This document shows, in pieces, positions 1,497 through 10,742 of a stretch of 26,695 bases of DNA (its first letter is position 1; every line of letters begins with the position of its first letter). A program made the translations under genes and the position numbers. The notes beneath the pieces were generated by a model. It was not told the DNA's origin. It saw only the letters and a program-made list of their open reading frames with translations, and did not search any database. Source of the stretch: Deinococcus radiodurans R1 = ATCC 13939 = DSM 20539 (GTDB taxonomy: Bacteria > Deinococcota > Deinococci > Deinococcales > Deinococcaceae); the NCBI RefSeq assembly GCF_000008565.1, contig NC_001263.1, positions 1,380,175 through 1,406,869 of the forward strand, written 5' to 3'.

Positions 1497-1545
1497 GTCC
1501 GGGTGAGTCACCTTTTCAAAAACAGCGGAGTTCGGCTCTAGCTCC

Positions 1546-1845
1546 ATGCCCATGACTCGTCGCCCGGCACCTCCCGCGCCGCTGCATCTCCCGCGCCTCG
1601 CACAAAGCATGGCAGGGCAATGGGTGTCGTTGCCGGGCTCCGCGGCGCGAGTCTTGGGGTTGACAGGGCGCGTGGCTGGGACGGCGCCGGGCTATCTCAT
1701 CTGCCTCGCTGGTGAAGTCGTGGTGGACCTGCCGACAGGAGATTTCGTGAAGCTGCGAGCAGGTGAGACCTTTCGAGTGGTGGAAGGGAAGTGGCAAGCC
1801 TTAGCTACAGCGGAAGGGACAGTGCTGTTGCATCTGTCGGAGTAG
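1546..1845 (+). CDS. Small hypothetical protein, possibly a single cupin-like beta-barrel; start uncertain (alternative Met at MAGQW)
   Basis: A 99-aa ORF in the gap between topA and the glucosidase gene, on the same strand. The C-terminal half (GEVVVDLPTGDFVKLRAGETFRVVEG) resembles a cupin strand pattern. No motif I can name with certainty. Confidence 0.35.
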   Translation: MPMTRRPAPPAPLHLPRLAQSMAGQWVSLPGSAARVLGLTGRVAGTAPGYLICLAGEVVVDLPTGDFVKLRAGETFRVVEGKWQALATAEGTVLLHLSE

Positions 1846-1860
1846 GGGCTCCTCTTCCCT

Positions 1861-1890
1861 TTGAATCCCGTGTCTTCTATTTCATATAAA
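1861..1890 (+). promoter_or_regulatory. Putative sigma-70-type promoter for the alpha-glucosidase gene
   Basis: TTGAAT (1861-1866), an 18-nt spacer, then TATAAA (1885-1890). It sits inside a strikingly AT-rich ~90-bp stretch in otherwise GC-rich DNA, about 60 nt upstream of the ATG at 1951. Confidence 0.4.
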
Positions 1891-1950
1891 AAATATTTTC
1901 CGGCGTCGCAATTCTCATCTGAAACGATTCAGTCCACCCTAAACTTGAGC

Positions 1951-3555
<1,605 letters not shown>

Positions 3556-5450: not shown

Positions 5451-5924
<474 letters not shown>

Positions 5925-6068: not shown

Positions 6069-6641
6069 TCACTTCGTTTCCTGTTCCACCACAGCAGTCA
6101 CGCCCCCACGAATGAAGGCATTCAACCGCTGGGCCACCTCCTGCGGGTCGCCGGTCGGGGTTTCGCGCACCACCGTTTCGTACACCACGCCGCGCAGCAG
6201 GCCGGACACCAGGGGGAGCAGCACCGGGTAAGTCGCCAGCCGCTGACTGCCGAGGGCCTGAGTCAATCCGCCGATCATGGCGTCGTCGAAGGCTTCGCGG
6301 CGCTCACGCAGTTCGGCGCTGCCACCACACGACAGCAGCAGCAGCTCGCGGTGGTTGCCGAGCACCTCAAACAGGGCCGCGAAATCCACCGGCTCGCCGG
6401 GCACCATCAAGGCCTGGAGGTCCGGCGTGATGGCGGCGAGGCGCTCGTCGAGCAGGGCGTCGAGAATGGCTTCGGTGTGGTGAAAGTAGGTGTAGATGTT
6501 GGGGCGCGAGGTGCCGATGCTTTCCGCGATCATGCCCATGGAGACGCCCTCGAACCTGTGACGAAGAAAGAGGCCGGCAGCGGCAGAAAGAATCTCGGCG
6601 CGGCGCTGGTCCGCCGGAAGACGTGTTTTGGTCATGGGCAC
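6069..6641 (-). CDS. TetR/AcrR family transcriptional regulator
   Basis: N-terminal HTH: RRAEILSAAAGLFLRHRFEGVSMGMIAESIGTSRPNIYTYF. It is divergent from the membrane-protein gene at 6762. Confidence 0.88.
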   Translation of the reverse strand: MPMTKTRLPADQRRAEILSAAAGLFLRHRFEGVSMGMIAESIGTSRPNIYTYFHHTEAILDALLDERLAAITPDLQALMVPGEPVDFAALFEVLGNHRELLLLSCGGSAELRERREAFDDAMIGGLTQALGSQRLATYPVLLPLVSGLLRGVVYETVVRETPTGDPQEVAQRLNAFIRGGVTAVVEQETK

Positions 6642-6761: not shown

Positions 6762-7532
6762 ATGTCAACTTCAGGCGGCCTCATCATCGACTGGACCCAG
6801 ATGCACACCTACAACACCGTCATGGCCGTCGCGGCGGGCGCGGGACTGCTCTCGGTCGTCGCGCTCGCTCGGCAAACGGTGCGGGGCGAGCCGTTCGTGC
6901 CTGAAGCGTGGGCGGTGAATTTCGGCATTCTGGGGACGTTGATGACCCTCACCGGCGCCCATATGACGCTCACGTGGCCGCTGGCGAAGTATTTCCCCTT
7001 CGACAACATCATTTTCGGGGAACCGTCCCTGGCCTTCGGCGTCTTGCTGCTGGGCACCGCCGCGTACCTGTGGCGGCGGGCCGAGCACCTGCGCTCCTCC
7101 CCCGACCTGCTCGCCGAGATGGTGGCGTTTCTCAGGCCGCTGCAATTTCTGCTCGTCGGGCTGGGGCTGTCACTGCTCGGGATTGCGGCGGCGGGGGTGG
7201 CCTTCCGGCTGTTCGCCGCGCCGCCCGAGGAACCGATTTCGGGGCGCTTTGCCACTATGCCCTGGCTGGAAGCGAGCGCCATTTCGGGCCTCTACGCCCT
7301 GGTGGGGCTCACGGCGCTGCTGATTCCGCTGGCCCTGCGCCAAGACCCTCACCGCCTGGCCCAGTCGGGGCTGGTGCGCGCAGCAGGCTGGAGGGTGGGG
7401 CTGTCCGGGCTGGTTTGGCTGCTGTTCGGGGCGCTCAACTATTTCACCCACATCGGGCTAATCTTGAACCTCACACGACTAAAGTCGCGTGATTCTCACT
7501 TCGCAGACCATTGCCCGCCGAAGCAGGTCTGA
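6762..7532 (+). CDS. Multi-pass integral membrane protein; its 3' end is replaced by IS-derived sequence (native part 6762..7463, original tail at 9200..9220)
   Basis: Several long hydrophobic segments are present. After codon 234 (ATC at 7461-7463) the frame reads into the IS right end for 22 codons. Joining 7463 to 9200 restores ...GLI-INTTAK-stop. Confidence 0.75.
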
Positions 7533-7610
7533 CATAGCCTCCATGAGCGTTTAAGGTGTCTGAGATTCCCGCAGCCACCAACGCTTCACGCCGAATGTTC
7601 AGCGCAGCGT
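7448..7610 (-). ncRNA. Omega RNA / reRNA of TnpB: scaffold from the tnpB 3' end and IS right end, plus a ~16-nt guide read from flanking DNA (7463..7448). The 5' end cannot be fixed from sequence.
   Basis: Stable helices sit on the minus strand inside and just after the tnpB stop. One is CACGCGAC-UUUA-GUCGUGUG (7472-7491). Another is CCUGC-UUCG-GCGGG (7514-7527), with a flanking CAGACC/GGUCUG helix (7504-7509 / 7526-7531). Established knowledge of TnpB systems places the guide immediately 3' of the right end. No promoter or 5' end was mapped. Confidence 0.6.
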
Positions 7611-8697
7611 TCTCGTCTCGGTCATGGGTTTCCCCACAGTTCGGGCAAGTCCATGTACGGACGGCAAGATTCTTCACTTCGGGATTCTTGAATCCGCAGT
7701 CATGACACAACTGGCTAGATGGAAAGTAGGGGCTGACTTTAGATACCAGTCGCCCGTACCACGCTGCCTTGTATTCCAACTGCCGGATGAACTCACCCCA
7801 GCCCGCATCACTGATGCTCAGTGCAAGGCGGCGATTTTTCCGCATGTTGTCGGGTTTAAGGTGTTCGGTTCCGATGATTTCGTACTCACGCACCAGGGAG
7901 GTGGTGAGCTTGTGAAGGAAATCCTGACGCTTATTGACAATGCGCTTGTGAATCCGAGCCAGCTTGGTTTTCGCTTTCCCGTAACGTGCGCTGCCCTTCT
8001 TCCGTCTGGACAGGGTTTGCTGAGCTTTACGAAGTCTTTTCAGGGTGGAGCGGTAATATTTCGGATTCTGTTCATGCTTAAACCTCACGCCATCGGTCAC
8101 GATGGCAAAATCCTTGATGCCGACATCCACACCCGCTGCAAACTTGGGAGCCGCAGGCAGGTAGGGAATCTCGACTTCACAGAGAACGGACGCTTCGTAA
8201 TGGCCTTCGTGAATACGGCGCACAGTGACATTCAGAATCTTCCCTTGAATATCCTGCTGGCCCTTGGTTTTCACCCATCCCAGCTTAGGAAGTTTGAGCC
8301 TACCTTCCCCAATTTGGATGTTGTTGTTGGTGAATTGAGTCCGGTAGGACTCTCCCGTGCGCTTCTTTCTGAAACGTGGGAATCCTACCTTTTTACCGGA
8401 CTGCTTCACAGTCCGAAAGAAGTTCTTGTACGCGGTCTCAAGGTTTTTCAGCGAGTTCTGCAAAGCAAACTTATCTACTTCCGAGAGCCAGGAGGTTTCT
8501 TCAGCCTGCTTCAGAAGGGTCAGTTCGCTACTCGTTTGCCCGTAGGTCAGTCCCTTCCCGCTTTCCTTGTAGGCCGCAATGCGACGGGCAAGGAAGTGGT
8601 TGTAGACGAACCTTGCGCTACCCAGCGTGCGGTTAATCAGTTCAGTCTGAGCCGCATTTGGGTACAGCCTGACCACGAAAGCCTTATTCCTTATCAT
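7471..8697 (-). CDS. tnpB: TnpB, RuvC-fold RNA-guided DNA endonuclease (OrfB_IS605 family)
   Basis: 408 aa. RuvC-I is [10 protein letters not shown] (D191), RuvC-II is IIGTEHL (E278), RuvC-III is [10 protein letters not shown] (D361). The zinc ribbon is C331xxC334...C351xxC354. Length and residue numbers agree with my memory of ISDra2 TnpB. Confidence 0.95.
7472..7491 (-). promoter_or_regulatory. IS right-end subterminal imperfect hairpin (TnpA recognition; also an omega RNA 3' stem)
   Basis: An 8-bp stem with one A.C mismatch and a 4-nt loop, 8 nt from the inferred end. GAAT lies immediately 5' of the stem and TCAA is at the terminus (minus strand). Confidence 0.8.
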
Positions 8698-9106
8698 GCT
8701 GGCTCTCTATGTATTTCTGAATCTGAGCGCGGGTGTTTTCAGAAACAGTCAGGATGCAATACGACGGGTTCCAGAGATTGCCGCCCCACAGCTTTTCTTT
8801 CAACTGCGGGTAGGCCACGAACATCCGACGTGCGGAAGCGCCTTTCAGCGCCTTCACGAAGTCGGGGATGGCTTGCTGTGGGGTTGCGCTTAGCAGGAGG
8901 TGAACGTGGTCAGGCATGACTTCCATCGTGATGACTTCCAGCCCGTTCTGAGCGGCAATGTCACGCAGGATGTCTTTCAGTCCATCAGCAACCTCACCCA
9001 CCAACACCTGATGACGGTATTTCACGCACCAGATGAGGTGGTATTCAAGCTGATAGACGTAACCCCGGCCTTTCTTCATCTCAAGGGGAAGAATAACATA
9101 TGTCAT
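8684..9106 (-). CDS. tnpA: TnpA, IS200/IS605 Y1 (HUH) single-strand DNA transposase
   Basis: 140 aa, with the HUH motif PDHVHLLL (H67/H69) and the catalytic Tyr in [10 protein letters not shown] (Y132). The N-terminal [14 protein letters not shown] is typical of the Y1_Tnp family. Confidence 0.95.
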
Positions 9107-9163
9107 CTGGAAAAGCTAGAGGCTTCCGCTTTTCATCGCCCTTTTCAGGGCGAGAGGGGCTAA

Positions 9164-9183
9164 CTCATGACTGAAGTCACGAG
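9164..9183 (-). promoter_or_regulatory. IS left-end subterminal imperfect hairpin (TnpA recognition)
   Basis: CTCGTGAC-TTCA-GTCATGAG on the minus strand: an 8-bp stem with an A.C mismatch at the same stem position as the right-end hairpin, 16 nt from the left end. Confidence 0.8.
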
Positions 9184-9199
9184 TGTGCGCCCCTCAAGC

Positions 9200-9204
9200 A
9201 TCAA
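9200..9204 (-). promoter_or_regulatory. 5'-TTGAT target/cleavage pentanucleotide flanking the IS left end (equals the TnpB TAM)
   Basis: The plus strand reads ATCAA at 9200-9204, so the minus strand reads TTGAT immediately 5' of the element. ISDra2 is known to insert 3' of TTGAT. Confidence 0.85.
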
Positions 9205-9238
9205 CACCACCGCGAAGTAAGACACTACGAAAAAGAAG

Positions 9239-9278
9239 AGCTCCCGCCCCGGCACACTTAGCCGGAGCGGGGAGCTTT
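9239..9278. terminator. Bidirectional hairpin terminator between the original end of the membrane gene and the 9306..9905 gene
   Basis: AGCTCCCGCCCCGGC-ACACTTA-GCCGGAGCGGGGAGCT (one bulge), preceded by AAAAAGAAG and followed by TTT. Confidence 0.6.
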
Positions 9279-9305
9279 CAGTGGTCGGTCAAGCCGCCCT
9301 GCAAC

Positions 9306-9905
9306 TCAGAGCGCGTTGTGCTTCGCCTGAATGGTGCCTTTTTTGGCGTCCACGACCACGCTGCCGAAAGGCTGAGCGGCCCCGCTGTCCTTGAAGGTCA
9401 CCGTCACCGGCTTTTTCACGTCGTAGCGGGCGCTCTGGAGCTGGGCGTTCTTGAAGACCCAACCGCTCAGCCCCGGCTGGCTGAAGGTGGCCGAGGCGTC
9501 GCCGATGGAGTCTTTCATGTCGGCCAGCATCGCCTTGGTGGGCACGGTCTTGTCGCTGCTGTCGACGATGCTCAGGACGCCGGGTTTGCTGAAATCGACG
9601 ACATACAGGCCCCACACCTGCGCGAAGGCGCTGCCCTGCGGAAAGATGCTGAGGGCTTCGGTCAGGGTCTTGCCCGCCACCTTGAGCGTCTTGCCGTCGT
9701 CCACCACACTGAGGGTGCCGCACTTGAAATTCAGCGGGGTATTGAAGCTGACCGTTTTGCCCTTTACCTGCACGGTGAGGGTGCCGCCGTCGTCAAGACG
9801 CACAGTGTTGCATTGGGCGCCCGCCACCTGGGTCGGGGCCGCCTGAACAGAGGACAGCGCCAGGAGACCGGTCAGGCTAAGCAGCAGAGAAAAAGAAAAT
9901 CGCAT
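9306..9905 (-). CDS. Secreted hypothetical protein
   Basis: 199 aa with the signal peptide MRFSFSLLLSLTGLLALSSVQA-AP. The mature part is beta-strand-rich. No family recognised. Confidence 0.7.
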   Translation of the reverse strand: MRFSFSLLLSLTGLLALSSVQAAPTQVAGAQCNTVRLDDGGTLTVQVKGKTVSFNTPLNFKCGTLSVVDDGKTLKVAGKTLTEALSIFPQGSAFAQVWGLYVVDFSKPGVLSIVDSSDKTVPTKAMLADMKDSIGDASATFSQPGLSGWVFKNAQLQSARYDVKKPVTVTFKDSGAAQPFGSVVVDAKKGTIQAKHNAL

Positions 9906-10011: not shown

Positions 10012-10563
10012 TCAAGCCTGAGCAAACTCGGTGCGGAAGCCGACTTCGAGGAGCTGCTGAATGAGTTCGCCCAACCGCTCGGCATCGAGGTCCGGGTTCT
10101 GCAAGATGGCCGTCGCCACCGAGAACAGCATGACGCGGGTGAGCAGCACCATCTTCGGCGCCCCGATCAGCTGCTCGGTGTTGCGTGTGCGTTCGTCCAT
10201 GCGGGCCATGACGCGCGCCCGGGTGGCCTGAAACAGTGGGCCGCCGCCACTTTGCAACAGCAGCAGCAGGTCACGCTGGGTCAGGAGCACCTCGAACGTC
10301 AGCCGCGCGTCGGGCCGCTTGACTTCAGCGAAGCGGCGGTCGAGTTCCGCGAAATACTGCGCGGTCAGGCGTTCGAGCAGCGTGTCGAGAATGGCCTCGG
10401 TGGAGGGAAAATAGGTGTAGACGTTGGGCCGCGAGGTGCCGATGGCGGCGGCGATCTCGCGGGGACTGACCTGGGCAAAGCCCTGCTCGATGAAGAGGCC
10501 GAGGGCGGTGTCGAGGATTTGCTCCCGACGGGTGTCGGAAGAGAGGCGTTGGCGTGGAGACAT
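10012..10563 (-). CDS. TetR/AcrR family transcriptional regulator (paralog of 6069..6641)
   Basis: HTH: REQILDTALGLFIEQGFAQVSPREIAAAIGTSRPNVYTYF. I prefer the ATG at 10563 (MSPRQR...) over the track start at 10602. Confidence 0.85.
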   Translation of the reverse strand: MSPRQRLSSDTRREQILDTALGLFIEQGFAQVSPREIAAAIGTSRPNVYTYFPSTEAILDTLLERLTAQYFAELDRRFAEVKRPDARLTFEVLLTQRDLLLLLQSGGGPLFQATRARVMARMDERTRNTEQLIGAPKMVLLTRVMLFSVATAILQNPDLDAERLGELIQQLLEVGFRTEFAQA

Positions 10564-10742
10564 GGGCGCAGAGTATAAGCGTGCCCCGGCCCGCTGCGGC
10601 AAGAGCGGGCCGGAGTCGAAGGCAGGGGCACGGACCCTGCAATTATCCTAAGACGTCTTTTCGTTGGCCCGGCGTACTTTCCTAAGATGGTCAGGTCCCA
10701 AAGTTCACGAATGTGACTCCGCACCGGCCTAGGGTGCGAGGC

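Follow-up and report, generated by a model that had tools for sequence, protein, structure and literature searches.

Related systems and the locus examined

ISDra2 of Deinococcus radiodurans is an insertion sequence whose TnpB nuclease and right-end guide RNA (reRNA, also termed ωRNA) have been described both biochemically and structurally (Karvelis 2021, PMC8612924; Nakagawa 2023, PMC10097598; PDB 8H1J and 8EXA). TnpB co-purifies with reRNAs of ∼150 nucleotides (nt) that match the tnpB 3′ end and the right end (RE) of the element and terminate ∼16 nt into flanking DNA, and the complex cuts DNA in which TTGAT lies beside a match to the guide (PMC8612924). Cryo-electron microscopy (cryo-EM) has shown a 116-nt scaffold bound to TnpB (PMC10097598). 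The stretch analyzed here, 26,695 nt of D. radiodurans R1 (contig NC_001263.1, positions 1,380,175 to 1,406,869; hereafter the window), carries a copy of this same element, and there is very little doubt that its region 7448..7610 is the right-end guide RNA of ISDra2. TnpB is identical to the published protein, the scaffold agrees base for base, and the target motif, the element boundaries and the position of the 16-nt guide are the same; the guide sequence alone depends on the copy (GAUUAGCCCGAUGUGG here).

The scaffold also resembles the single guide RNA (sgRNA) of Cas12f, a tracrRNA:crRNA fusion, in that the UUUA loop of its stem 4 links tracrRNA-like and crRNA-like parts, making it a “natural sgRNA” (PMC10097598). 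Unlike Cas12f and other Cas12 systems, ISDra2 takes its guide from the transposon flank rather than from a CRISPR array, its TnpB is a monomer, and its scaffold overlaps both the nuclease open reading frame (ORF) and the transposase binding site. Stem 4 and the hairpin at the left end (LE) are subterminal imperfect palindromes of the kind known from IS608 and the IS200/IS605 elements, located on the top strand and with a conserved non-Watson-Crick position (PMC2806898), but the RE palindrome of ISDra2 is in addition transcribed into a guide RNA and partly translated. In Rfam, the IS605-orfB motifs RF03065 and RF02998 represent the same kind of RNA at the tnpB 3′ end (PMC10055086), and their models cover other ωRNA lineages.

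The ISDra2 copy and its proteins

The element was delimited by reading the minus strand together with the ORF list and extends over 1,736 bp, window 9199..7464, on the minus strand. Its genes and target site are as follows.

8684..9106, minus strand: tnpA, a Y1 (HUH) transposase of 140 amino acids (Pfam Y1_Tnp, 2.3e-43)
7471..8697, minus strand: tnpB, 408 amino acids (ORF list), with its TGA stop at 7471..7473
9200..9204, minus strand: TTGAT, target site and transposon-associated motif (TAM), read from the sequence directly 5′ of the left end

The tnpA ORF overlaps that of tnpB. TnpA matches the ISDra2 TnpA structures over its full length (PDB 2XM3, 2XQC, 2XMA and 2XO6; E about 1e-93). TnpB is 100% identical over 408 amino acids to the RNA-guided endonuclease of PDB 8BF8, 8EX9, 8EXA and 8H1J and contains the Pfam domains HTH_OrfB_IS605, OrfB_IS605 and Cas12f1-like_TNB, the last ending at residue 368; both results place a RuvC-type TnpB nuclease next to the RNA. 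The Y1 TnpA, the subterminal hairpins at LE and RE, and insertion 3′ of TTGAT with no target duplication are all present, and the role of TTGAT in ISDra2 has been described (PMC2806898, PMC8612924). Because the identity of TnpB and TnpA, the TTGAT motif and the element ends all fit, the window element is a copy of ISDra2.

Identity, TAM and boundaries are direct observations. In 8 related loci, blastn homology to the window ends exactly at 7464, which confirms the right-end boundary that an earlier note on this DNA had inferred. Reconstruction of the empty site restores the reading frame of a gene for a DUF981 membrane protein (Pfam), with HIGLI and INTTAK-stop meeting at the joint; the insertion point thus lies in the last codons of that gene. 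TTGAT or TTGAC occupies the equivalent position in relatives. Among the left ends compared (L001 to L008, L017, L117 and L140, our numbering of related loci), TTGAC adjoins the element in most, and TTGAT in the window, L001 and apparently L007; this split suggests that the TAM or target site varies within the clade.

Map of the scaffold

Positions in the ωRNA follow PMC10097598, position -n corresponding to window coordinate 7463+n. The pairings described from the cryo-EM structure (PMC10097598) map onto the window base for base.

7580..7694, minus strand: 5′ extension of the primary ωRNA, -231..-117 (PMC10097598), processed off and unneeded for cleavage
7464..7579, minus strand: reRNA/ωRNA scaffold core, -116..-1 in PMC10097598 numbering; 129.9 bits with covariance model R1
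7555..7579, minus strand: stem 1, GGUGGCUG (7579..7572) with CAGACACC (7562..7555), with a conserved G.A
7568..7566, minus strand: pseudoknot 5′ strand GAA, -105..-103, in the stem 1 loop
7549..7554, minus strand: triple-helix strand, -91..-86, which docks on stem 1 (PMC10097598)
7495..7547, minus strand: stem 2, -84..-81 / -35..-32, CUCA (7547..7544) with UGAG (7498..7495), enclosing stem 3
7505..7540, minus strand: stem 3a, -77..-71 / -48..-42, AGGCUAU (7540..7534) with AUGGUCU (7511..7505)
7512..7533, minus strand: stem 3b, -70..-49, containing the CCUGC-UUCG-GCGGG hairpin at 7514..7527
7472..7491, minus strand: stem 4, the RE subterminal hairpin, -28..-21 / -16..-9, CACGCGAC-UUUA-GUCGUGUG, loop -20..-17
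7466..7468, minus strand: pseudoknot 3′ strand UUC, -5..-3, the partner of GAA at 7566..7568 (PMC10097598)
7448..7463, minus strand: 16-nt guide GAUUAGCCCGAUGUGG in host DNA, defined as in PMC8612924; homology of relatives ends at 7464

The RNA therefore lies on the sense strand of tnpB, overlaps the tnpB 3′ end and reaches the right-end boundary. Most of the scaffold falls within the last 36 tnpB codons, and the stop is followed by 7 nt, GGUUCAA (7470..7464). Stem 4 has 8 bp, one of them G.U, and its 3′ arm includes the UG (7473-7472) of the TGA stop at 7473..7471. In the 5′ extension (7580..7694), codon periodicity stays normal.

The earlier note had proposed that the final tnpB codons and the 7 nt beyond the stop also encode a guide-RNA scaffold, and that the RNA leaves the element at 7464 to copy its guide from host DNA. 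Both proposals agree with published experiments on ISDra2: the scaffold has been shown to be encoded there (PMC8612924, PMC10097598), and reRNAs end in ∼16 nt of flanking DNA (PMC8612924). The coordinates and sequences given in the note were all correct on the minus strand. The fold is larger than it described, as stem 1 with its triplex, stem 2, stem 3a and the pseudoknot escaped it and only the 3′ third of the architecture had been seen; its observation is thus partly confirmed and its interpretation supported.

Comparative evidence for the fold

Relatives were collected by a genome scan with TnpB, which gave nine Deinococcus loci (TnpB 55 to 85% identical) and several distant ones, and by a metagenome scan with the pattern ACACCNNAAACGCNCNTNGAG, which has 16 specified bases. 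The latter returned 120 loci, nearly all of them chance matches, and added three true relatives (L117, L128 and L043/L134). Ten sequences were aligned with plain MAFFT (alignment A1). With the cryo-EM fold imposed on A1, 94.5% of cells hold standard pairs and 12 pairs are changed on both sides; none of 500 shuffles reached the observed values, and pairing with slid partners was 32 to 38%. Conservation and covariation of the published fold are thus directly visible among the relatives, and the scaffold stems are conserved with compensatory change.

The stems contribute as follows in the 10 sequences. Stem 4, which the earlier note had found as a helix spanning the stop codon, is real: it is 100% paired, with 2 compensated pairs. 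Pairing is also 100% in stem 2, where 2 of the 4 pairs are compensated (all 4 in the wider set); it is 90% in stem 3a (4 of 7 pairs compensated) and 95.6% in the stem 3b hairpin (2 compensated). For stem 1 the figure is 87.5%, with 2 compensated pairs besides the conserved G.A; its pairs 12:26 and 13:25 change from CG to UA, and it also appears in the minimum free energy (MFE) structure. The pseudoknot is 100% paired, its changes being one-sided, from A-U to G-U, in four sequences. G.U pairs occur on the tnpB-sense strand only, and the structure was therefore assigned to that strand.

A covariance model built from 12 sequences finds the same architecture directly 3′ of tnpB genes just 30 to 40% identical, with matches in Sphaerochaeta (41 bits), Selenomonadaceae (33 bits) and Levilactobacillus (24 bits). 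In the model-fitted alignment of 20 sequences, 29 of 35 pairs are compensated, a count that the fitting biases upward.

Two of the three helices proposed in the earlier note are decisively supported by covariation, and the same two, stem 4 and the UUCG hairpin, are part of the core MFE structure. The second of these survives in its stem, which is the covarying tip of stem 3b. Its UUCG loop does not fare as well: the cUUCGg motif is present in the window copy and is not kept in relatives, where the loop reads UUGU, AAAU, UUUG, CUCG, UCCG, AAAA, AAUC or GUUC or is deleted, and in L006 the whole stem 3b hairpin is lost through a 15-nt deletion. Stem 3b is disordered in the cryo-EM structure, and its deletion (Trim2) leaves activity intact or improves it (PMC10097598).

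The third helix, CAGACC/GGUCUG (7531..7526 / 7509..7504), fails. It clashes with cryo-EM stem 3a, and since GGUCU pairs with the upstream AGGCU there, also in the core MFE structure, it is not a native helix; nor does it occur in the published fold. It could instead be a functional alternative conformer that competes with stems 3a and 3b as an RNA switch, which we regard as very improbable. Six perfect pairs are available in this copy, and movement of the distal part of this arm upon target binding has been reported (Sasnauskas et al., as summarized in PMC11844463). Among relatives, however, pairing of the helix (61.8%) just matches the shuffle mean, and none of its pairs shows a compensatory change; it is missing from both the MFE and the centroid structure; and L006 lacks one arm, while RNA with the Trim2 arm deletion remains active (PMC10097598).

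Two further features of the relatives lie at the edges of the scaffold. In two relatives of 55% TnpB identity (L007 2601..2691 and L011 1872..1983), ∼75 extra nt (∼25 codons) lie just 5′ of -116 and separate the scaffold core from the conserved TNB domain, an arrangement that fits two separable modules joined by a variable linker. A likeness of the L004 flank to the window guide (11 of 15 positions) was dismissed as chance, there being no longer homology behind the match.

Expression, processing and mechanism

The existence, ends, structure and cleavage activity of the RNA are taken from published experiments on ISDra2. RNAs of ∼220, ∼160 and ∼130 nt have been reported, with cuts near -150/-138 and at -117/-116; the candidate 5′ ends at -149/-150 and -137/-138 correspond to window positions ∼7612 and ∼7600 (PMC10097598). 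An orthologous TnpB processes its own mRNA through its RuvC site, on the 5′ side and not on the 3′ side (PMC10278001), and a 2026 preprint reports for ISDra2 the same self-processing of the overlapping transcript in its native form. The published data thus place the origin of the 5′ end, which the earlier note could not locate, in processing rather than in a dedicated promoter. A promoter scan found no minus-strand sigma-70-like site inside tnpB, a result that is uninformative for Deinococcus and consistent with mRNA processing.

From these data the following sequence of events is proposed for the window copy. (i) Transcription of tnpB would read through the right end into host DNA, and the 5′ side of the transcript would be trimmed to leave ∼130 to 160 nt. 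(ii) The last 116 nt of the element would fold into stems 1 to 4, the triple helix and the pseudoknot and would be bound by TnpB, with the next 16 nt of host sequence (7463..7448) serving as guide. (iii) TnpA, recognizing stem 4 as a subterminal hairpin of the single-stranded top strand, would excise that strand and leave an empty donor joint (TTGAT followed by GATTAGCCCGATGTGG) that matches the guide and could be cut by TnpB. (iv) Recombination with the sister copy would then restore the element. Cutting of the empty donor joint after excision, with reinstatement by recombination, is the role that has been proposed for TnpB (PMC8612924, PMC10055086).

Before 2021, an RNA of this kind would have been seen mainly as a sense-overlapping regulatory small RNA acting on tnpB or tnpA expression or on transposition. 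Such noncoding RNAs at tnpB 3′ ends were described before the guide role was known (PMC4615843), and a cis-inhibitory mRNA region has been reported for an orthologue. As a principal function this has become hardly tenable, because guide function has been demonstrated directly for ISDra2 (PMC8612924) and regulation could only be additional.

Nothing in the window contradicts the guide-RNA reading, yet several points weigh against it. The folding energy alone is moderately unusual, just ∼2.3 standard deviations below shuffles (z = -2.31 for 147 nt, z = -2.28 for the 116-nt core). The pseudoknot is supported in the alignment by one-sided changes only and so rests on the cryo-EM structure; a thermodynamically predicted pairing of -5..-3 with -32..-30 has both partners invariant in the alignment, and covariation therefore cannot separate the two. 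The 10 to 12 close relatives share phylogeny and the covariance-model alignment is fitted to the structure, so that the shuffle statistics are not probabilities. No Rfam family matched the RNA at E ≤ 1 (positions 7000 to 9600) or at the gathering score (whole window), RF03065 and RF02998 included at either threshold; this miss is read as a gap in the library and not as novelty. Finally, expression of this particular genomic copy is inferred.

Stem 4 as the TnpA recognition hairpin

Stem 4 has a counterpart at the other end of the element.

9164..9183, minus strand: LE subterminal hairpin CUCGUGAC-UUCA-GUCAUGAG, whose G.T matches that of the RE hairpin in stem position

Read as 9183..9164, it has the GAC-UUYA-GUC core of the RE hairpin, and the stem 4 segment of the covariance model also matches the LE hairpins of L002, L003, L004, L007, L008 and L117. 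LE and RE hairpins covary within each element, e.g., with C-G for A-U/U-A in L002 and L003. The terminal 43 nt of RE, secondary structure included, are enough for cleavage and strand transfer by TnpA, and this holds for single strands only (PMC2806898). In a mutational scan, stem 4 overlaps the TnpA hairpin and is tolerant of mutation for TnpB cleavage (PMC11844463), a paper stating outright that reRNA, ORF and TnpA hairpin overlap. The likeness of the two hairpins, the TnpA data and the tolerance in TnpB cleavage together mean that the extreme conservation of stem 4 is best attributed to TnpA.

Could all helices matter only as a single-stranded DNA recognition end for TnpA, with RNA folding incidental? 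In favor of this, stem 4 is the TnpA hairpin, LE carries a near-identical one, mutations in it are tolerated in TnpB cleavage assays (PMC11844463), and its 35 nt recur unchanged in Clostridium plasmids that encode a TnpB of only 20% identity. For stems 1 to 3, however, this explanation is already refuted, as the terminal 43 nt are enough for TnpA activity (PMC2806898), whereas these stems covary up to 116 nt from the end, and cryo-EM shows the RNA in complex with TnpB (PMC10097598). As an account of the whole region it can be set aside with near certainty. Equally implausible is that the stop-spanning hairpin is an intrinsic terminator or a 3′ stabilizer of tnpB mRNA: a stable hairpin of 8 to 9 bp does stand at the very end of the ORF, but it is followed by GAGGUUCAAGAUUAG with no U tract, a terminator scan of the minus strand finds no site at 7300-7500 and none after RE, and the published RNAs read into the flank (PMC8612924), so that stem 4 is not a Rho-independent terminator.

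The Clostridium plasmids deserve description in their own right. Seven plasmids of Clostridium botulinum/sporogenes carry 33 to 38 nt that are 97 to 100% identical to window 7459..7496, i.e., the ISDra2 right-end hairpin and terminal nucleotides. In L139 (NZ_CP031095.1, 1128..2535), a tnpB-only element ends in this stretch. Its TnpB shares only 20% identity with that of ISDra2; the rest of its ωRNA has diverged (39.9 bits with the covariance model, 37% GC), and its left-end hairpin, CCCGTGACTTTAGTCATGGG, is that of the Deinococcus relative L007. The nearest tnpA in C. botulinum was considered as the cause of the identical right end and rejected, as it is part of a different element and its product shares only 36% identity with ISDra2 TnpA. 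Because the stretch is identical beside a TnpB of 20% identity, the 35-nt module of stem 4 and the cleavage site may be an exchangeable TnpA-end cassette that evolves apart from the TnpB-ωRNA core.

Protein-level constraint on the coding overlap

The earlier note had assigned three roles at once to this region: protein sequence, RNA structure and TnpA recognition. The last two hold, but the protein role was overstated. Pairwise diversities across six relatives were as follows for the three codon positions.

N-terminal half: position 1, 0.18; position 2, 0.12; position 3, 0.51
Codons 335-373: position 1, 0.06; position 2, 0.09; position 3, 0.34
Scaffold overlap, codons 373-408: position 1, 0.13; position 2, 0.21; position 3, 0.27

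The usual excess at third positions is almost gone in the scaffold overlap, and no Pfam domain of TnpB reaches this tail, none extending past residue 368. Compensatory changes in the RNA replace amino acids freely; in L002 the tail, ending in NARRECVSPALAGNVR, differs from that in the window. The stop position itself varies: the window, L001, L004, L006 and L008 have the stop within the 3′ arm of stem 4, and L002, L003, L007 and L011 have it 30 nt earlier, at ωRNA -40..-38 (the “hinge”). In the latter four, the 3′ arm of stem 2 and stem 4 are noncoding and equally conserved. Residues 376-408 of TnpB are disordered, poorly conserved and dispensable for cleavage, and the functionally important parts of ORF and RNA barely overlap (PMC10097598). 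Dual coding is thus physically real, and selection on the protein in the overlap looks weak from the codon-position and stop-codon comparisons, in agreement with the published dispensability of residues 376-408.

Two relatives have damaged nuclease genes. In L005 (a D. radiomollis plasmid, 1501..2713), tnpB contains two in-frame stops, and in L008 (1501..3053) it is split by an insertion of ∼320 nt; in both loci the ωRNA is intact and still scores in full. Their nuclease genes may be decaying while the guide and RE modules are preserved.

Host context

With the insertion, the DUF981 ORF (window 6762..7532, plus strand, and 9200..9220) extends 22 codons into the element before its stop, and this extension runs antisense to the ωRNA scaffold. 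The 16-nt guide is likewise antisense to the DUF981 gene. On the other side, ∼40 nt upstream of TTGAT, a GC-rich hairpin and the T-rich run after it (9243..9271, minus strand) resemble a terminator, probably that of the host gene lying upstream at 9306..9905 (minus strand); given this host terminator, transcription of tnpA and tnpB likely starts within the element. Genes for TetR-family regulators (6069..6641 and 10012..10602, both minus strand) stand on either side of the insertion region, and these, like an MsrB (SelR) gene at 5451..5924 (plus strand), are ordinary host context.

Significance

The guide-RNA finding is already known, ISDra2 being the reference example and not merely a member of the family. 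No new biology is claimed, but reading of the raw sequence correctly located the RNA, its boundary and its guide. Two side notes, the alternative tnpB stop position among close relatives and the 33-38-nt stretch in Clostridium, were not stated in the literature consulted.

The overlap could be more than an accident of packing. A ribosome finishing tnpB would unwind stems 1 to 3 (in ISDra2 also stem 4), and each transcript might therefore be either translated or matured; stop position would then tune a choice between translation and guide. The exchangeable 35-nt cassette is a related reading. We offer both as speculations that are probably wrong.

Cas12 descends from TnpB with its reRNA/ωRNA, which is also a compact genome editor and has ISDra2 as its reference system. 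For recoding of the overlap, it matters that relatives conserve the native fold and not the CAGACC/GGUCUG helix, and that the last 36 codons behave as translated RNA rather than as a selected protein segment.

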